DNA of 32,868 nucleotides from an uncultured Candidatus Saccharibacteria bacterium (GCA_964418955.1 CAYQNN010000002.1:1-32868); one strand, 5' to 3'; positions 815 through 27,527 are shown, counted from the stretch's first letter. A program made the numbers and translations. Notes: generated by a model not told the origin, from the sequence alone.

Positions 815-1672
815 TTAGTAAGTCTCTGGGAAAATAAAAATTTTATCAAACCTTAAATCAATATATTTAAGGTTTTTTCGTTTAGCAAGAGTAATGTCCT
901 CTTTTAAGATTGCCTCAAGTTCGGTTATCTGCCAATTTAAATCCTTACTTAAATTAAAATAAATCTCCCAATCTTCTGATGTTTTAACGTTTAATCTATC
1001 TCCGGATATTAGAGCTTCTTTAATTAAAATTTTAAAGTCATTTTTTAATTCTGACTTAATTTTTAGTATCTTCGTCATTTTTCCTTTTTCAACAACCATT
1101 TTTCCTAAAATTAAATTATCCACCCTGTCTGTTTTCTCTATTTTTAAAACTGAATCTTCTTCTGAATTTTCTTTAAAAATTACTCCTTCATTATCAATAG
1201 AAAAACAGCTATTATCTTGCCCGCCCAAGTCCAGCCCTTCCGTAGAAGGGCTGGACTGATTGGCTTGGCAAAAAACGGCAACCCGCTCCCTTTCTTTAAT
1301 ATTGACCAATAAGGTATTAAATAATTTTCTTTTTAATTCCACCTGGAAAATCAGAGGAAAATTTTTCAGAAGACTCTCGTCTGCCTTTCTTAAATCGGCT
1401 AAAAGAATACTTTTTGTATCAAAAAAAATAATTTTTCTGTTGAGATGGTCAAAAATCGTATTCTCAATATCATTTGTGACTATCTTTTCGTTTCCGGAAA
1501 TCTTAATTTCTTTTATTTGCAAGAAAGATGAAAAAACAAGAAAATAAAAAAGCGCTCCGATAACAATTAAAAGCAAAAAAAACAGCCAAAAAAAACGTGA
1601 CTTAAGCGCTAAAAAAATTAATCTCGATTTTTTCTTTCTATTTCGATATAATTTTTTGTATTTATATTTCAC
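815..1672 (-). CDS. ftsQ: Cell division protein FtsQ/DivIB (N-terminal TM anchor plus POTRA domain)
   Basis: 285 aa. Basic N-terminus, one TM helix, then a POTRA-like IKEIKISGNEKIVTNDIENTI...VELKRKLFNTLLVNIKERE. Lies in a peptidoglycan gene neighbourhood. Confidence 0.75.
   Translation of the reverse strand: MKYKYKKLYRNRKKKSRLIFLALKSRFFWLFFLLLIVIGALFYFLVFSSFLQIKEIKISGNEKIVTNDIENTIFDHLNRKIIFFDTKSILLADLRKADESLLKNFPLIFQVELKRKLFNTLLVNIKERERVAVFCQANQSSPSTEGLDLGGQDNSCFSIDNEGVIFKENSEEDSVLKIEKTDRVDNLILGKMVVEKGKMTKILKIKSELKNDFKILIKEALISGDRLNVKTSEDWEIYFNLSKDLNWQITELEAILKEDITLAKRKNLKYIDLRFDKIFIFPETY
1228..1257. repeat. Perfect 13-bp-arm GC-rich palindrome inside ftsQ
   Basis: AGTCCAGCCCTTC-cgta-GAAGGGCTGGACT. 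All 13 pairs checked by hand. Confidence 0.95.
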
Positions 1673-3059: not shown

Positions 3060-4319
3060 TTATTCTAACATATTTAGAAAATCTACTATTTTTTGGGCCT
3101 GCTTTTGAGAGATATTTATATGGGTTGGCAGATTCAAGGTTATTTTAGATAGCTTCTCGGCCTTTGGACAACTGCCCATTTTATATTTTACTTTATCTAT
3201 GTTCGTATCATAAGGAGCGATTGGGGTTGTGTACCAATCCCCTATTAAAAGATTTCTTTCCCATGCCTTTTTAATTATCTGGTGAGCTTTAGGATGTTTT
3301 ATTGTAAAACGCAAAAATATATTTTTTCTCTCTGGGTATTTTTTTGGAAGTTCAAAAGATGATTTTTTCAAATTTTCAGAGTAAAAATCGGCTATTTTTT
3401 TTCGGTGATTATTAAACTTTTCTAATTTTAGAAACTGATTTTTGGCAAGCAAGACCAAAGCGTTTGGCATTCTTCTGGGAAAATAAGACGGTCTTTTGCC
3501 TTGTTTTTCTTTCCAGTGAACCGCCTTAGACAAAATATGAAACCATTGAGATAAAACTAAAATAATCTTACCGATTAAAATTTTATAAGTTGGCAGGATT
3601 AAAAAATTCATTAGAATAGGATGCAACAGTTGTTGTAACGTCCAATAATATGAGGGATAAGCAAGTTTGTCCTGAATTTGGCGAAGTTTTTCGCCAAGCG
3701 AAGGATCGTTAGTTACCGCCATTCCCCCATAGACAGAAGAAATTATTTTGTCCCGGGAAAAACTGAAAAAAGCGGCCTTGCCAAAAGTTCCAACTTTTTG
3801 GCCCTTGCGATTAGCCCCTAAAGAATGGGCGCAATCTTCAATTAGAATCAAGTTATTTTGCCGCGCAATATCCAAAATTTGAGCCATTTCCGCAGGTAAG
3901 CCAAATGTATGCTGAATTATTAACGCTTTGCTCTTAGGCGTTATCTTTTTCCTTAAATCTTCAACATCAATATTAAAATCATCTTCATTACAATCAACAT
4001 AAACGGGTTTCAACCCCGACCATAATATCGGATTAGACGCGGCATTGCAGGTAAATGCCTGAAGTAAAATTTCACCTCCCGACTCCGAATCAAGGGCTCT
4101 CAAAATTGCTATTAGAGAAGAACGGCCGCTATTGAAAGAAAAAGCGTATTTTATTCCAAGATATTCTTTAAATTGATTTTCTAATTCCTTAATCGCCTTC
4201 CCTTTTTTCCACTTCCAGGGCTGAAAGATTAATTTTAAAGTTAACCAAATATCGTCTTTTTGGGTGTTTGGAGATAAAGATATTGTAATTGGCTTAAATG
4301 CTTGACAAAATTTAAACAT
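3060..4319 (-). CDS. DegT/DnrJ/EryC1/StrS-family PLP-dependent aminotransferase
   Basis: 419 aa. FNSGRSSLIAILRAL, IEDCAHSLGA and the PLP-lysine region FSFSRDKIISS. Contains an extra hydrophobic segment (LLHPILMNFLILPTYKILIGKIILVLSQWF). Confidence 0.8.
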   Translation of the reverse strand: MFKFCQAFKPITISLSPNTQKDDIWLTLKLIFQPWKWKKGKAIKELENQFKEYLGIKYAFSFNSGRSSLIAILRALDSESGGEILLQAFTCNAASNPILWSGLKPVYVDCNEDDFNIDVEDLRKKITPKSKALIIQHTFGLPAEMAQILDIARQNNLILIEDCAHSLGANRKGQKVGTFGKAAFFSFSRDKIISSVYGGMAVTNDPSLGEKLRQIQDKLAYPSYYWTLQQLLHPILMNFLILPTYKILIGKIILVLSQWFHILSKAVHWKEKQGKRPSYFPRRMPNALVLLAKNQFLKLEKFNNHRKKIADFYSENLKKSSFELPKKYPERKNIFLRFTIKHPKAHQIIKKAWERNLLIGDWYTTPIAPYDTNIDKVKYKMGSCPKAEKLSKITLNLPTHINISQKQAQKIVDFLNMLE

Positions 4320-4389
4320 ATGCTATGATGTAATTAGTAAAAAAGGAGTAAAATTTGTTCATTCACAATTTAATTGGGAAGGAAAGAAA

Positions 4390-4818
4390 ATGAAAAAAAA
4401 ACTAAATCTCCTTAAAAAATTTGAACATACTGACAAAAACTTTCTAATATTCTTGCTTTTATTAGCGTTTCTTGTTTCAATTATAAGCCTTGTTGCCTAT
4501 ACGCTACGGACCCCTCTACCCAAAAGCGAGAAACTTATTGGCAAAACTCCGACTTACGAAAGCGGGTATCTCATCCGTTATCTGGACAAGCAAGTCGCGA
4601 TAGTTATGATCCGAGTTAACAAAGACGACCCGAAAGAAAAAGCCAATGATCTCTTTATTTCAGCCAAAGCGGCAATCGAGAAATCGGACGTTCTTCGACC
4701 GAAAAAGATAGTTCATACGGTTCCGCTTAAACCGATTGATAGCTCAACAGAAGAAAATATCACGATAGAAAAATTCGTGATTATCGTGCAACCGATTGAA
4801 CCTAACTTTCCCTCCTAA
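4390..4818 (+). CDS. Hypothetical N-terminally membrane-anchored protein
   Basis: 142 aa. GGAAGG Shine-Dalgarno upstream, one TM helix (FLIFLLLLAFLVSIISLVAY), hairpin terminator at 4869-4906. No recognisable domain. Confidence 0.5.
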   Translation: MKKKLNLLKKFEHTDKNFLIFLLLLAFLVSIISLVAYTLRTPLPKSEKLIGKTPTYESGYLIRYLDKQVAIVMIRVNKDDPKEKANDLFISAKAAIEKSDVLRPKKIVHTVPLKPIDSSTEENITIEKFVIIVQPIEPNFPS

Positions 4819-7239: not shown

Positions 7240-7248
7240 TAGTTTATT

Positions 7249-7300
7249 AGAGACCCGACCTCTATTTAAGCTTCGCAGTTTTTTTAGAGGTCGGGTCTCT
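7249..7300. repeat. Perfect 16-bp-arm inverted repeat in the serS-hydrolase intergenic region
   Basis: AGAGACCCGACCTCTA-N20-TAGAGGTCGGGTCTCT. No U-run follows on the transcribed strand. Confidence 0.95.
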
Positions 7301-7309
7301 CTTTCAATC

Positions 7310-8592: not shown

Positions 8593-10053
8593 TTATTTTT
8601 TAGGTTTCATTGTGGGAAATAAAATAACCTCTCGCAAGCTGTGAGAATCGGTTAACAATGCCGTTAAACGGTCAATACCCATGCCAAAGCCGGCGGCCGG
8701 AGGCATACCGTATTCCAATGCCTCAATAAAATCTTCATCCATTCTTTGGGCTTCTTCAAAGCCCTGTTTAAATATCTTTTCCTGCTCTTTAAATCTTCTT
8801 CTTTGCTCAATTGGATTATTAAGCTCGGAAAATGCTTTAACTAATTCCATACCAACGCTTACCAACTGAAAACTGGCAGATTTTTTAGGATTTTTATCAA
8901 AAGGTTTGGCCAAAGGAAACATTCCTGCCGGATAATTTATAATAAATATCGGCTGTAAAATTTTCGGACGGCAGCACTTCTTGTAAATTTCGTCGGCAAT
9001 ATTATTTTTATCTCCCTCCGCTTTTACGCCCATCTTTTTTGCTTTTTTCCGAAGGGCTTCTATGTGTATTTCGTCTAAATCAATTTTTGTGTATTTTCTG
9101 AAAAGTTGGTTAAATTCAATCCGCGGCCAAGGAGTTTTAAAGCTAATCTTTTTCCCTTCATATTCTATTTCCAGTTTTCCAAACAAATTTTTCAGCAAAA
9201 CCGAAAACATTTTTTCTGCAAATTTCATTAAATCCTTGTAATCGGCATAAGCCCAGTAAAATTCCAGCATAGTAAAATCAGGATTATGAGCCCTGTCCAC
9301 TCCTTCATTTCTAAAACACTTTCCGATTTCATACACCTTTTCAAATCCGCCAACTAAAAGCCGTTTTAAATAAAGTTCCGGCGAAATTCTTAAATATAAA
9401 TCAACATCAAGCGCGTTTAAATGGGTTTTAAACGGCTTGGCTTTCGCGCCTCCGTAAATTGGCTGTAAAATAGGCGTTTCTACCTCTAAAAACTCTTCAC
9501 TCTCCAAAAATTTTCTGATTTCTTTAATAACTTTTGAACGCAGTTCAAATTTCTTTTTAACTTCCGGGTTAAAAATTAAATCTAAATATCTTTTCCTGTA
9601 TCTTCCCTCCACATCTTTTAGGCCGTGCCATTTTTCCGGCAGAGGAAGTAAAGATTTAGCTAAAATTTTATAATCTGCTATTTCCAATGTTTTTTCTCCT
9701 TTTTTTGTTTTGAATAAAATTCCTCTGATTTCAATAAAATCTCCGATATCAAAATTATCCAAGAAAAACTGATATCCTTTTTCTCCCAGCCGGTCTTTTT
9801 TGAATAAAACCTGAATTTGGCCTGTTCCGTCTTTAACATCACAAAAAGCAAGCCCTCCATGCTGCCTTAAGGATATTATTCTGCCAGCCAGAATTATTTC
9901 CTTTTTTGCCCTTGCCAATTTGTTAAAATCTTTAATGGTTTGAGCGCAACTATGAGTTCTTTTTGTCTGTTCGGGATAAGCCAAAAGTCCGGCGTTTTCA
10001 ATCGCCTTAAGTTTTTTGACCCGATTTTTTCTTATTTCATCTATTGTCGCCAT
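8593..10053 (-). CDS. lysS: Lysyl-tRNA synthetase, class II
   Basis: 486 aa. OB-fold N-terminus, CFRNEGVDRAHNPDFTMLEFY, GMPPAAGFGMGIDRL. Confidence 0.95.
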   Translation of the reverse strand: MATIDEIRKNRVKKLKAIENAGLLAYPEQTKRTHSCAQTIKDFNKLARAKKEIILAGRIISLRQHGGLAFCDVKDGTGQIQVLFKKDRLGEKGYQFFLDNFDIGDFIEIRGILFKTKKGEKTLEIADYKILAKSLLPLPEKWHGLKDVEGRYRKRYLDLIFNPEVKKKFELRSKVIKEIRKFLESEEFLEVETPILQPIYGGAKAKPFKTHLNALDVDLYLRISPELYLKRLLVGGFEKVYEIGKCFRNEGVDRAHNPDFTMLEFYWAYADYKDLMKFAEKMFSVLLKNLFGKLEIEYEGKKISFKTPWPRIEFNQLFRKYTKIDLDEIHIEALRKKAKKMGVKAEGDKNNIADEIYKKCCRPKILQPIFIINYPAGMFPLAKPFDKNPKKSASFQLVSVGMELVKAFSELNNPIEQRRRFKEQEKIFKQGFEEAQRMDEDFIEALEYGMPPAAGFGMGIDRLTALLTDSHSLREVILFPTMKPKK

Positions 10054-10092: not shown

Positions 10093-10122
10093 AAAAAACG
10101 GCTCCGCTCAGCGGAGCCGTTT
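10093..10122 (-). terminator. Intrinsic terminator
   Basis: 12-bp stem AAACGGCTCCGC/GCGGAGCCGTTT with a T-run on the minus strand. Confidence 0.8.
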
Positions 10123-10132
10123 CCTTTAATAC

Positions 10133-10903
10133 CTAATCAATAAATTTAAAAGTAGAAATAATTTTTTCAATAATTTCAAGTCTCTCTTTTCTAACCTTCT
10201 CATAATCTTTCTCGTCTTTCGTGCCGTAACCAGTAGTGTAACTTATCTCAAAAAGATGTTTTGAATTCTGAATATATATTGATATTTGATCGTCGTAGTC
10301 TTCTTCATTGCCAAATCGAAGTCTTTTTGCATAACCAATTGTACTATCCAAATTAATTTTTGAATAATCGGCAAAAGACAGATTAATAAGTTTTTTATAA
10401 TAATCAGGGTCACTTTTATATATATCAATCTCGTTTTTCACATATTTTTCTAGATCTTCTACTGGTTCAACAGAAACTAAAAAGCTTATTCCTGCTTTTC
10501 CATCAAGCCAAGCGCCTGGAGTCCATTTACCAGTCGTAGATCCAATGAATCCTTCCAACGCTGGGAAATCGCTACCGAGAGTTACATTTGTGCCACCCAC
10601 CGGAGAAAATTTACTAAAATTTGCCGCAATTGGAATAGAGTTAATGGTTTCAGGATACTTTATCTCGTACCCATACTCCTCGTTTCTATAAACATTCCAA
10701 TCAGCGGTTTCGGATTTTGGCGTTTCTGTTTCTTCCGGCGTTTCTGTCTTTGGTAAATTAGCAGAAGGGATGTTTATTTCTCCTTGTTTAGGCAACCAAA
10801 CATACTGATAAGAAAGAAAGACAACAGCGCCAACAATGGCTACCAAGATTACAACTATAATCCCGAATGAAGATGAAATGCCTTTTTGATTTTGATTATT
10901 CAT
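10133..10903 (-). CDS. Hypothetical N-terminally anchored extracytoplasmic protein
   Basis: 256 aa. One TM helix, a T/E/P-rich linker, then WNVYRNEEYGYEIKYP. Has its own promoter (10947-10975) and terminator (10093-10122). Confidence 0.6.
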   Translation of the reverse strand: MNNQNQKGISSSFGIIVVILVAIVGAVVFLSYQYVWLPKQGEINIPSANLPKTETPEETETPKSETADWNVYRNEEYGYEIKYPETINSIPIAANFSKFSPVGGTNVTLGSDFPALEGFIGSTTGKWTPGAWLDGKAGISFLVSVEPVEDLEKYVKNEIDIYKSDPDYYKKLINLSFADYSKINLDSTIGYAKRLRFGNEEDYDDQISIYIQNSKHLFEISYTTGYGTKDEKDYEKVRKERLEIIEKIISTFKFID

Positions 10904-15242: not shown

Positions 15243-16544
15243 TTAGGGTGTGGGATTTGAACCCTTTGCCGATTTAATAAATTGTTTTCCCCTATCAAAT
15301 TCATTTTTGAATAAATTAAAACTGGCCGCTCCGGGAGAAAGTAAAATAATATCGCCCTTTTTGGCTTGTTTTGACGCTTTTTTTACCGCTTCTTTCATTG
15401 AATTTACGAGAAAAACAGAGACCCGTTCTCTGTCAACTGACAGAGAACGGGTCTCTGACATTTTTTTCAATCTTTTTTTAATTTTATTTGTAGCTGTGCC
15501 CGGCAGAAGAATAAGAGAGCTTATCTCTTTTTGGATTTCTTTTGCTAAGCTTTTATAATTTAGTTTTTTATCCTGACCACCGGCAATGAGAATAATTTTC
15601 GATTTAGGAAATTTTTCCCTGAAAGCAGCTATCGCTAATATTGCCGACTGAGGCGTGGTAGCAGTAGTATCATTGATGTATCTTATTCCTCTCTTCATAG
15701 CAATCAGCTCCTGCCTGTTGGAAACGCCCTTAAAATTAGAAAGAACTTTTTTAATATTTTTTTTAGAAACTTTGAAAATTTTAGCCACAGCAATGGCAGC
15801 TGAATTATTAGAACCTTTAAAAAAATGAACCCTTGAATGACCTTTTAAGACAAGCTTTCTTACCTCAAGGTCATTATAATTTAAAACTAAAATATCATTT
15901 TTTTTCTGGTATTTAAAAATTGGTTCTTTTGCTTTAATATAATCTTTAAAATTTTTATATCTGTCCAAATGGTCAGGGAAAAGATTGGTAATAACCGCCA
16001 CCTGCGGACTTTTCTTCAAATCCTCCAATTCAAAACTGGAAAGTTCTAAAACAACCCTACTTTTTTTATTCACTTTTGGCAGGATTTCCAAGGGTGAAAC
16101 TCCAATATTGCCGGCTAAAACAGTGTTTGGATACTTAGTTTTTAAAAATAAATAGATAAGAGTAGCAACGGTTGATTTGCCCTTGGTGCCGGTAATCCCA
16201 ATAATCGGAGCTTTGCATAAATCAAAAAAAATATCTATATCGGTTTTTATAGGAATTTCATGTTTTCTAGCAAATTTAAGATAAGGGGAGTTTTGAGGTA
16301 CAGCCGGATTTTTAATAATTAAGTCTGTATTGATAAAATCTTCCTTTCTGTGCTTACCCAATACAAATTTTATGGGAAAACCTTTAAGTTTTTGGAGAGA
16401 TTCTTTCAATTGGCTTTTAGTTTTTAAATCCGTTACAAGAGGTTTAGCTCCTTGTTGACAAAAAAATTTGGCTGTTCCTACTCCTCCGCCGTGTAATCCT
16501 AATCCTATTATGGTTACCTTTTTACCATTAAATATTTTTTTCAT
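15243..16544 (-). CDS. murD: UDP-MurNAc-L-Ala--D-Glu ligase (MurD)
   Basis: 433 aa. N-terminal GLGLHGGG Rossmann-like region, GITGTKGKSTV, C-terminal LLSPGAASFNLFKNEFDRGKQF. Confidence 0.9.
   Translation of the reverse strand: MKKIFNGKKVTIIGLGLHGGGVGTAKFFCQQGAKPLVTDLKTKSQLKESLQKLKGFPIKFVLGKHRKEDFINTDLIIKNPAVPQNSPYLKFARKHEIPIKTDIDIFFDLCKAPIIGITGTKGKSTVATLIYLFLKTKYPNTVLAGNIGVSPLEILPKVNKKSRVVLELSSFELEDLKKSPQVAVITNLFPDHLDRYKNFKDYIKAKEPIFKYQKKNDILVLNYNDLEVRKLVLKGHSRVHFFKGSNNSAAIAVAKIFKVSKKNIKKVLSNFKGVSNRQELIAMKRGIRYINDTTATTPQSAILAIAAFREKFPKSKIILIAGGQDKKLNYKSLAKEIQKEISSLILLPGTATNKIKKRLKKMSETRSLSVDRERVSVFLVNSMKEAVKKASKQAKKGDIILLSPGAASFNLFKNEFDRGKQFIKSAKGSNPTP
15416..15457. repeat. 42-nt palindrome (20-bp perfect arms) inside murD
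   Basis: CAGAGACCCGTTCTCTGTCA-ac-TGACAGAGAACGGGTCTCTG. Confidence 0.95.
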
Positions 16545-16672: not shown

Positions 16673-17494
16673 TTAAAAAGGGTCTTTTATTTTTATCTTA
16701 ATCTCCTTTCGGAAACAAAGCCGGCTTATTTTTTTTAGATTATACGGTTCGTCGCTGAAAAAAAATTGGTGATTTCTCCCTTTTTTAATTTGAGCAGCTA
16801 TTTGAGGACTGTTCTCTAAAAATAACTTAAGTTCTTTCGCCAAATTTTCCGCTGGGTTAATGATTTTGATACCAGCCCCCGCCACTTTTCTTATCTCTTT
16901 TTCCAATAAAGGATAATGAGTGCAAGCTAAAATTAAAGTATCTATTTTTTTTAATTTTAAGGGCATTAAATACTCCTTAATTATTTCTCTTGTTATCTTA
17001 TTATTTATCCATCCTTCCTCCGCTAACGGCACAAGCAAAGAACAGGGCTTTGAATAAATTTTTAAAGAAGGGTCTATTTTTAATAGTTTATTTTTGTAAG
17101 CATTGCTTTTAATAGTGCCCGGTGTTCCTATTATCCCGATTTTTTTGTTTTTTGTTGATGCCAAAACCTCTTTTATAGCTGGCGCTATCACTTCAAAAAT
17201 CGGTGTTCCTCTTCCCCCTAGGGCAGATCTGCCTTTGGCGGAAAATTGTTTTTTCAGAGAATCTGAAGCCCAAGCGGAAGAAGTATGGCAAGCAACAATA
17301 ACAATCTTGGCTCCTTTTTTAATAAGCCATTTGGTAATTTTTGCCGAATATCTTCTCACAAAACCAGCTCCTTTCGTCCCATAAGGAAGCCTGGCCGTAT
17401 CTCCAAAATAAATTATTTGATATTGCGGCAGATATTTGAAAATTTCTTTTACAACAGTTAATCCGCCGATACCAGAGTCAAAAATTCCTATCAT
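16673..17494 (-). CDS. murI: Glutamate racemase
   Basis: 273 aa. IGIFDSGIGGLTV, VIVACHTSS, ILACTHYPLL. Confidence 0.9.
   Translation of the reverse strand: MIGIFDSGIGGLTVVKEIFKYLPQYQIIYFGDTARLPYGTKGAGFVRRYSAKITKWLIKKGAKIVIVACHTSSAWASDSLKKQFSAKGRSALGGRGTPIFEVIAPAIKEVLASTKNKKIGIIGTPGTIKSNAYKNKLLKIDPSLKIYSKPCSLLVPLAEEGWINNKITREIIKEYLMPLKLKKIDTLILACTHYPLLEKEIRKVAGAGIKIINPAENLAKELKLFLENSPQIAAQIKKGRNHQFFFSDEPYNLKKISRLCFRKEIKIKIKDPF
17222..17233. repeat. 12-nt perfect palindrome GGCAGATCTGCC inside murI
   Basis: Lies within the GC-rich segment that encodes SAKGRSALGGRG. Confidence 0.8.
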
Positions 17495-17535: not shown

Positions 17536-17573
17536 AACTCTCTAAAATTCACTATCGTGAATTTTAGAGAGTT
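17536..17573. repeat. Perfect 17-bp-arm palindrome, core CTCTAAAATTCAC-N4-GTGAATTTTAGAG
   Basis: Located in the divergent intergenic region between murI and CDS 17708. Confidence 0.95.
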
Positions 17574-27385: not shown

Positions 27386-27439
27386 AATAATTTATTTTAC
27401 TAAAATAAGTAAAATCTGGCAACAATCGTAATATGATAT

Positions 27440-27489
27440 AATTATACCCCTCTAAAATTCACGACCGTGAATTTTAGAGGGGTATAATT
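27440..27489. repeat. Perfect 23-bp-arm palindrome with the same core, CTCTAAAATTCAC-N4-GTGAATTTTAGAG
   Basis: Located in the divergent intergenic region between thpR and amrS. The outer arms read GGGGTATAAT outward on both strands. Confidence 0.95.
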
Positions 27490-27527
27490 TTTTCTTTAGA
27501 AAAATTAAAAATAATGGTAAAATTATA

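Follow-up and report, generated by a model that had tools for sequence, protein, structure and literature searches.

A 42-nt in-frame palindrome in murD of an uncultured Candidatus Saccharibacteria bacterium, probably a translated member of a REP/REPIN-type repeat family

The murD gene and its palindrome

The 32,868-nt stretch CAYQNN010000002.1:1-32868 from an uncultured Candidatus Saccharibacteria bacterium (the window, meaning the whole of the DNA analysed) carries on its minus strand the murD gene, within which lies a 42-nt palindrome that is translated in frame and is the subject of the present study. The open reading frame (ORF) of murD contains the MurD-like_N, Mur_ligase_M and Mur_ligase_C domains, each above the Pfam cut-off. 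Its best solved relative is the Streptococcus agalactiae MurD structure 3lk7 (E 9e-59), whose alignment has a gap at the position of the palindrome, and its closest named homologues belong to Candidatus Nealsonbacteria of the candidate phyla radiation (CPR, Patescibacteria), which points to an ultra-small bacterium of that group as the host.

On the plus strand, positions 15416-15435 read CAGAGACCCGTTCTCTGTCA, followed by the loop AC and by TGACAGAGAACGGGTCTCTG at 15438-15457, with complementarity at 20/20 pairs. By our own estimate, a perfect 20-bp stem with a loop of at most 10 nt would arise by chance in 32.9 kb at 35% GC, which is approximately the GC content of the window, with a probability of ~2e-6; the arm occupies a single site in the window and did not occur in any of 100 dinucleotide-preserving shuffles. 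The 42 nt form 14 in-frame codons with no stop, translated as SETRSLSVDRERVS between KKRLKKM and VFLVNSMKEA. An earlier, sequence-only reading had reported exactly this, a perfect-arm palindrome of 20 pairs and 14 codons in murD, and both the sequence and the Pfam matches confirmed it. What that reading missed is that the palindrome is a doublet of a smaller palindrome and that it has relatives in a transposase-associated repeat family.

The smaller palindrome is a 17-nt quasi-palindromic unit with the consensus CAGAGACCCGnnCTCTG. Each arm is nearly complementary to itself (CAGAGAC-C-C-GTTCTCTG, pairing at 7/8 positions), and the GGT variant of the unit is a perfect 7-bp palindrome. In all long forms of the element, namely those of the window and of the related loci L001, L003, L005 and L006, the centres of the two units are reverse complements of each other, and the arrangement is therefore an inverted doublet and not a tandem one. 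The two units are separated by a palindromic spacer; in the relative L001/L042, whose arms are the same, the two nucleotides at its centre are flipped (GT/AC as read on the coding strand).

A very stable hairpin is predicted for the element, with folding energies of -39.7 kcal/mol (z -8.4) for RNA and -23.2 kcal/mol (z -9.7) for DNA. On the mRNA strand, a stem of 19 pairs is followed by TTTTTCT, and both strands score as terminator-like. The element thus has the pattern of an intrinsic terminator, a GC-rich stem with a T-run, yet it is located inside the ORF, ~170 nt upstream of the murD stop, and termination there is a prediction only. No Rfam match was obtained at gathering thresholds for the element in the window or in four loci with family copies, and the window contains no tRNA or tmRNA genes.

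The sequence-only reading had further proposed that, as a palindrome, the element makes the opposite strand encode nearly the same peptide and so explains an antisense ORF at 15250..15558. The first part held, since this plus-strand ORF reads TETRSLSTDRERVS across the palindrome. The second part did not: stop-free antisense stretches are 38-103 aa long in carriers of the long palindrome and 19-240 aa (median 67) in non-carriers, and because they are equally long in the latter, the palindrome accounts for no more than 42 nt of this 309-nt antisense ORF. In practical terms, such palindromes call for caution, since they break assemblies and give rise to antisense ORFs that mirror the coding strand; here the mirroring covers only the 14 codons of the element itself.

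An AlphaFold2 model of the window MurD built on 46 homologues (mean predicted local distance difference test, pLDDT, 90.4; predicted template modelling score 0.88) placed residues 363-376 from the end of the helix 350-365, through a coil, up to the strand 376-379, and the gap of 3lk7 falls in this same loop. Confidence drops there, with block pLDDT values of 66 and 79 over residues 363-376 and values below 50 for residues 369-371. Nowhere does the alignment of 120 homologues with 57-80% identity vary more than in this helix-to-strand loop, which is empty in most of them (e.g., RNF-KIYSV). Compared to relatives with an empty loop, the protein gains 9-13 residues net and not the full 14, as the palindrome has also taken the place of a few ancestral loop codons. 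In the model, then, the peptide of the palindrome is an extension of a low-confidence surface coil of the C-terminal domain. This agrees with the earlier description of a palindromic element inserted, with the frame preserved, into the C-terminal domain of an essential gene, as does the lack of the insert in most orthologues of ~70% identity.

Table 1 Coordinates of the features in the window
Feature	Position	Strand	Remarks
murD, host gene, 433 aa	15243..16544	-	UDP-N-acetylmuramoylalanine--D-glutamate ligase; assigned by Pfam domains, structure match and model
42-nt perfect palindrome, inverted doublet of a REP-like unit (REPIN-type)	15416..15457		MurD residues 363-376; minus-strand translation SETRSLSVDRERVS
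REP-like unit 1, CAGAGACCCGTTCTCTG	15416..15432		Quasi-palindrome, 7/8 internal pairs; dispersed copies elsewhere
Spacer TCA-AC-TGA	15433..15440		Palindromic, 8 nt
REP-like unit 2, CAGAGAACGGGTCTCTG	15441..15457		Reverse complement of unit 1
TTTTT on the coding strand	15411..15415	-	Directly after the stem (V-F-L codons); terminator-like on the mRNA strand
T7 run	15461..15467	+	Read as A7 (lysine codons) preceding the stem on the mRNA strand; makes the other strand terminator-like too, as in dispersed copies
Second family copy, AGAGACCCGACCTCTA, 20 nt, TAGAGGTCGGGTCTCT	7249..7300		In a ~70-nt block (~7240-7309) exactly at the serS/hydrolase junction
murI	16673..17494	-	
10-aa in-frame insert of murI	17212..17243		Decayed palindrome
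AT-rich palindrome	27435..27494		Divergent intergenic region
AT-rich palindrome	17536..17573		Divergent intergenic region
GC-rich palindrome, 30 nt	1228..1257		In ORF 815..1672 (-)
Terminator-like palindrome	10096..10122		In the gap between ORFs 10133..10903 and 8593..10053

A dispersed repeat family and its transposase

Other copies of the element, which the sequence-only reading had proposed to look for, were found both inside and outside the window. The pattern AGAGACCCGnnCTCT-N(0-30)-AGAGnnCGGGTCTCT was scanned in one genome per GTDB species and gave 29 loci against ~0.004 expected by chance (our own estimate). In the CPR metagenome-assembled genome (MAG) CAZYWT01 alone, at least 11 copies with the exact pattern are spread over 8 contigs, and further copies have mismatches; their typical form, aaaaaaaccAGAGACCCGACCTCTGGCAaattTGCCAGAGGTCGGGTCTCTggtttttt, is located mostly just outside ORFs, sometimes in partial tandem arrays, with A-run and T-run flanks. 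The MurD of CAZYWT01 is only ~45% identical to that of the window, and the family therefore spans distant CPR lineages. The full 20-nt murD arm (..CTCTGTCA) recurs in L015, L025 and L040, and the nn variants at murD (TT, AC and GT) also occur among the dispersed copies. The other copies examined lie outside ORFs, whereas the murD copy is intragenic and in frame. One apparent intragenic singlet (L025, 2476) was rejected as a two-mismatch chance match inside a ParA/Fer4 gene. Viral contigs scanned for the family pattern gave 0 matches, so phages are not an evident vector.

The second copy in the window provided a clean pair of filled and empty sites. In four relatives (L001, L003, L009 and L011), the serS and hydrolase genes overlap by ATGA and the site between them is empty. 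The empty site of L001 reads ...GAAATTAAAAAATGACGG..., and the filled site of the window reads ...GAAATAAAG(TAAGATTGAAAGAG-doublet-AATAAACTA)ATGACGG..., the flanks being otherwise near-identical and the block of ~70 nt missing from L001. The long-spacer subtype to which this copy belongs is also present at a non-orthologous site in another MAG (L028).

A link to a transposase was found in the CPR locus L037, where an ORF of 246 aa (3820-4560) between the genes for enolase and phosphoglycerate mutase has an array of the unit on either side, at 3773-3840 and at 4576-4643. This ORF contains the HUH motif MPNHIHLL and matches Pfam Y1_Tnp with 36.9 bits (cut-off 23). Its best NCBIfam match is 'REP-associated tyrosine transposase' (RAYT; REP, repetitive extragenic palindrome) with an E value of 5e-13 and 49.1 bits, and because this score is below the curated cut-off of 80, the protein is called RAYT-like here and not a certified RAYT. 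It has 758 homologues at E <= 1e-5, most without a taxon name, and all six of those that are named come from CPR lineages (Parcubacteria, Staskawiczbacteria and Patescibacteria). The Staskawiczbacteria homologue (L123) is preceded by GCGGAGTCC-C-GGACTCCGC and followed by CGGAGTCC-G-GGACTCCG, flanks that share their design with AGAGACC-C-GGTCTCT / AGAGACC-G-GGTCTCT. Contigs carrying a RAYT-like gene are mostly 1-3 kb long, as would fit flanking repeat arrays that break short-read assemblies.

By their published definition, REPINs consist of two REPs that are inverted relative to each other and fold into a hairpin; compensatory changes are frequent, and a 'clover' is the alternative fold (PMC3116915). 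The murD element and its family resemble them in several respects: two short palindromic units are inverted around a spacer, so that one long hairpin or two small ones are possible; the hairpin is kept by compensatory changes; copies are dispersed (in CAZYWT01; two are visible in the window), form clusters by insertion beside existing copies, and in arrays flank a single Y1 transposase gene (L037, with a sister sequence in L123). The 17-nt imperfect palindrome is within the size of a REP unit (~15-40 nt), and movement is evident from the filled and empty sites of the second copy, the murD alleles themselves differing by patches. The differences are that the murD copy lies within an essential gene and is translated, that its doublet is very compact (42 nt with an 8-nt spacer), that no GTAG/CGTC-type tag is evident, and that the hosts are CPR/Patescibacteria, of which the REPIN/REP literature found makes no mention; the association with a RAYT concerns other genomes only, and the protein scores below the curated NCBIfam cut-off.

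Among other known systems, the Rickettsia palindromic elements (RPEs) lie in frame in unrelated housekeeping genes, are free of stops and encode peptides compatible with the host fold; they are ~100-150 bp long, restricted to Rickettsiales and have no known transposase (PMC10969869). The murD element is likewise in frame and stop-free in a protein-coding gene, with 14 codons, and is set apart by its length (42 nt), its CPR host and presumably its sequence, taken to be unrelated, most copies of its family being intergenic. SPRITE of pneumococcus is a terminator-like dispersed repeat (PMC10969869). With such repeats the present family shares a GC-rich stem that has an A-run on one side and a T-run on the other, and a stem sequence repeated at many gene 3' ends; the murD copy differs in being within a reading frame, where termination is only predicted. 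The paired uptake sequences of Neisseria are terminator-like dispersed repeats as well. Yeast mitochondrial GC clusters, mobile GC-rich palindromes of ~40-50 nt in an AT-rich genome, are polymorphic between strains, and one lies in frame in var1; they differ from the murD element in kingdom and sequence and are not known to involve a Y1 transposase.

Doublets of the 17-nt unit were also observed outside the CPR. The repeat sequence is thus conserved across phyla: a 33-nt doublet, AGAGACCCGGTCTCT nnn AGAGACCGGGTCTCT, occurs several times per genome in MAGs of Chloroflexota and in two of Fuerstiella (Planctomycetota), and a MAG labelled Gammaproteobacteria has a 39-nt doublet (cross-phylum loci L013, L016, L018, L019, L023, L024, L026, L027, L029, L031, L033-L035, L038, L040 and L041). 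No transposase was found in the 8-kb Chloroflexota, Planctomycetota and Gammaproteobacteria loci.

Alleles of the murD loop and their exchange

The DNA of ~90 murD relatives was fetched, and the loop was read in each. The window form (CAGAGACCCGTTCTCTGTCA gt TGACAGAGAACGGGTCTCTG; stem 20, loop 2) recurs in L001 and L042 with the same arms and the loop flipped to ac (stem 20, loop 2). Further long forms are CAGATGCCCGACCTCTGTCAG / CTGACAGAGGTCGGGCATCTG in L003 and L004 (stem 21, loop 0), ACAGAGACCCGGTCTCTG ttagctgg CAGAGACCGGGTCTCTGT in L005 (stem 18, loop 8) and CCGAGGTCCGACCTCGGGAA gt TTCCCGAGGTCGGACCTCGG in L006 and L063 (stem 20, loop 2). Short forms were seen in L008 (ACAGAGACCC / GGGTCTCTGT, peptide TETRVS; stem 10, loop 0) and L010 (GAGACCC / GGGTCTC; stem 7, loop 0), and L007/L055 and L009/L056 carry decayed copies. 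These forms are referred to below as series A. Homologous residues encoded by non-palindromic DNA, which would speak against a palindromic insert as first described, were met only as the evidently decayed copies of L007 and L009, and the empty loops of related genomes include those of L077 and L058.

The arms co-vary. Among six 42-nt versions (window, L001, L003, L005, L006 and L007), both-sided changes affect 9/20 stem pairs, and 96.7% of cells are paired, against 28-43% pairing in slid controls. Four of five co-variation measures were reached by 0/500 shuffles, and the fifth (further pair types) by 9/500. All stem pairs in the window, L001, L003 and L006 are Watson-Crick, with no G:T.

These data bear on the possibility that the palindrome is an artefact. 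Errors of multiple displacement amplification or of assembly, such as a fold-back chimera, can yield perfect palindromes, and the window is a metagenomic contig. However, the same or a co-varying palindrome is located at the same codons in at least eight independent contigs from different samples and assemblers (NCBI, JGI, ENA and Logan assemblies), its complementarity ends after 20 nt and the frame is intact, which makes an artefact, the risk that the sequence-only reading had pointed out, extremely improbable. Adapters and vectors (Nextera mosaic end, SMRTbell, BsaI cassettes) were also considered as a source and rejected, with no match beyond 6-7 nt.

Comparison of near-identical genes with and without the palindrome revealed replaced patches of roughly 80-180 nt. 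The filled L006 and the empty L077 are 96.4% identical over the gene and differ by one replaced patch of ~80 nt, within which the KKEL codons show five synonymous differences and the strand downstream is not the same (VFFVK vs LHLAG). The filled L003 and the empty L058 are ~95% identical outside the patch and 48-70% identical within it. Similarly, the window and L001 are 78% identical overall and 88-97% identical over 150 nt around the palindrome, with 40/40 arm bases identical. Since filled and empty alleles differ by such patches, the palindrome-bearing murD allele is exchanged, and spreads between related lineages, by homologous recombination. An attempt to distinguish gain from loss with a neighbour-joining tree was abandoned, as polarisation failed: series A, the unrelated series B described below and alleles with neither were intermingled, because murD is a recombination mosaic. 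Viewed along the gene, the murD sequences of the window, L001, L042, L003, L058, L006 and L077 are fine-scale mosaics in which identity jumps between ~70% and 100% in blocks of 100-200 nt, a profile that indicates frequent homologous recombination among related CPR populations.

The conservation of the stem raises the question of function. A hairpin in the mRNA or DNA of the division and cell wall (dcw) operon could serve as a translation-sensitive internal terminator or attenuator, as an RNase processing site or as a ribosome pause site; processing ~170 nt before the murD stop would then set the murD:ftsW ratio. The terminator-like features on both strands, the predicted RNA fold, the preservation of the stem through both-sided changes, the identity of all arm bases between genes that are only 78% identical, and the use of the same loop by three unrelated palindromic elements in different lineages all fit such a role. 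Nevertheless, most close relatives, even the near-identical L077 and L058, do without the palindrome, which has decayed in L007 and L009 and shrunk to 7-10 bp in L008 and L010; the local conservation is accounted for by a recently shared recombination patch of ~150 nt, and Rfam has no match. We therefore consider a functional hairpin improbable.

Hairpin elements at the loop and the origin of the insert

In-frame hairpin inserts are common in this clade, and three unrelated palindromic elements (series A, series B and family C) are present at one and the same MurD loop in different lineages. Series B (palindrome AAAGGAACTCGGTTCCTTT) has a short form, AAAGGAAC-TCG-GTTCCTTT (KELGSF; L069, L075 and L071), which has the same length as its non-palindromic relatives, and a long form, the exact inverted doublet AAAGGAACTCGGTTCCTT tttt AAGGAACCGAGTTCCTTT with stems of 18-19 bp (L012 1483-1522, L049 1581-1620, L064, L074 and L095). 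No copy of series B was found beyond murD in 970 kb, and the pattern as a whole suggests template switching in situ.

Family C (CCCCGTTAGAG) is a 59-nt element resembling a MITE (a miniature transposable element built on inverted repeats), tttaCCCCGTTAGAGrTT, ~30 nt, AAyCTCTAACGGGGttta. It is usually found between TTTA and TTTA, in which it is MITE-like and unlike the murD element of the window, and, with the 4-nt repeat counted in, it lengthens the gene by 63 nt and the protein by 21 aa (FTPLEV.KTKKKHKA.KPLTG). Its copies are in frame at no fewer than four different murD positions, including the present loop, and are present elsewhere in the loci (L051 3688/6731/7130; L059 3186; L012 306; L053 4577; L089 861/3303/7253; and others). 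A further in-frame inverted doublet, GGATAGGCCCGGCCTATCC cagtcta GGATAGGCCGGGCCTATCC (45 nt, peptide MDRPGLSQSRIGRA), lies near the MurD N-terminus in L072 (4798-4842).

Series B bears directly on how the window palindrome arose. A short palindrome of the loop could have been lengthened in situ by inverted duplication, i.e., by intrastrand template switching during replication, with arm-to-arm templated correction keeping the stem perfect; the resemblance to REPs would then be secondary, or hairpins of the murD type would arise in the same way everywhere. Template switching is described as creating hairpins (bioRxiv 10.1101/2023.04.19.537475), and the all-Watson-Crick stems of four series A alleles fit DNA copying better than selection at the RNA level. 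The inverted doublet of L072, at another murD site, adds to this, as do the series B short form, reached without a change of length, its exactly doubled long form and its restriction to murD. Moreover, the series A singlets of L008 (10+0) and L010 (7+0) are about as long as an empty loop; together with series B at the same site, they speak for an origin in situ. Its main weakness is that the murD arms match, over 17-20 nt, a dispersed family that flanks a transposase gene and has been inserted elsewhere in the same window. The nn variants at murD are also those of the dispersed copies. On balance, we regard an origin of the window palindrome in situ as unlikely.

The palindrome is probably, in our opinion, a REP/REPIN-family element carried in murD as a translated passenger, analogous to the RPEs. 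Family copies usually reside between genes, resembling bidirectional intrinsic terminators, and according to this interpretation the presumed mobilising enzyme would be the Y1/HUH (IS200-like, RAYT-type) transposase, flanked by copies in at least one CPR genome and presumably also encoded by the genome from which the window derives. One copy would have reached the hypervariable surface loop of MurD, by transposition rather than by templated conversion, and would have survived there owing to a length divisible by three, a frame free of stops and a Ser/Arg/Glu-rich peptide that merely extends a coil; the insert would be functionally neutral. The palindrome-bearing allele has since moved between related lineages as a short patch of homologous recombination, the arms remaining exactly complementary while their sequence changed.

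Several observations weigh against this interpretation. Only two family copies are visible in the 33-kb window, and when the window and all 125 loci were searched by tblastn with the RAYT-like protein as query, only its own locus was hit; no transposase gene was found in the window or at any murD locus. REPs are extragenic by definition, a rule that the murD copy breaks. There is no clean insertion or target-site signature at murD, where near-isogenic pairs differ by patches; although the whole murD element is an inverted repeat, no target-site duplication could be defined there or at ~7240-7309. The series A singlets of near empty-loop length, and the same passage from singlet to inverted doublet in series B at the same site with nothing elsewhere in 970 kb, count here too. 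Finally, arms that have stayed exactly the same in genes with 22% divergence could also reflect selection for function.

Three points are new as far as our literature searches extend, namely the assignment of the palindrome, as a REPIN-type doublet, to a RAYT-associated family of CPR bacteria, the exchange of its allele by recombination and the recurrent occupation of a single MurD loop by three families of hairpins: the search with the exact element sequences returned nothing relevant, and no earlier description of palindromic insertions in CPR was found. So far, Rickettsia has been the textbook case of palindromic repeats within proteins, and REP/REPIN have been defined as extragenic. Should the phenomenon be general, it would offer a concrete mechanism by which the many insertions in CPR core proteins that lack an explanation could arise, and it would add new hosts to the range of RAYT/REPIN systems; the filled, singlet and empty alleles would form a natural series for probing the effect of a very stable hairpin on the transcription and translation of an essential gene. 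A more speculative extension, which we put forward as rather doubtful, is that the hairpin-forming repeats of CPR (the RAYT-associated family, the 59-nt CCCCGTTAGAG element and local inverted doublets) are a main source of in-frame length variation in core proteins, that loops such as that of MurD are recurrent landing pads whose alleles spread by recombination, and that the murD hairpin, being no mere passenger, is retained as a translation-sensitive internal terminator or pause site in the cell-division operon.

Other palindromes of the window were noted in passing. In the neighbouring murI gene, a 10-aa in-frame insert is present in the window and in L001 (SAKGRSALGG / SARGESARSG) and missing from four relatives. 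The DNA of the window insert is a decayed palindrome around GGCAGA|TCTGCC, with 18-nt arms that are 83% complementary, and looks like a second, older hairpin insert. Two AT-rich palindromes with stems of 24-29 and 17 bp have CTCTAAAATTCAC / GTGAATTTTAGAG in common and may be operator sites or members of another repeat family. The GC-rich palindrome near the beginning of the window, AGTCCAGCCCTTC cgta GAAGGGCTGGACT, has a 13-bp stem and is exactly 30 nt long. The conserved terminator-like palindrome AAACGGCTCCGC../..GCGGAGCCGTTT has counterparts in L003 (13610-13647), just downstream of murG, and in L084 (10531-10567), and is probably an ordinary orthologous terminator.

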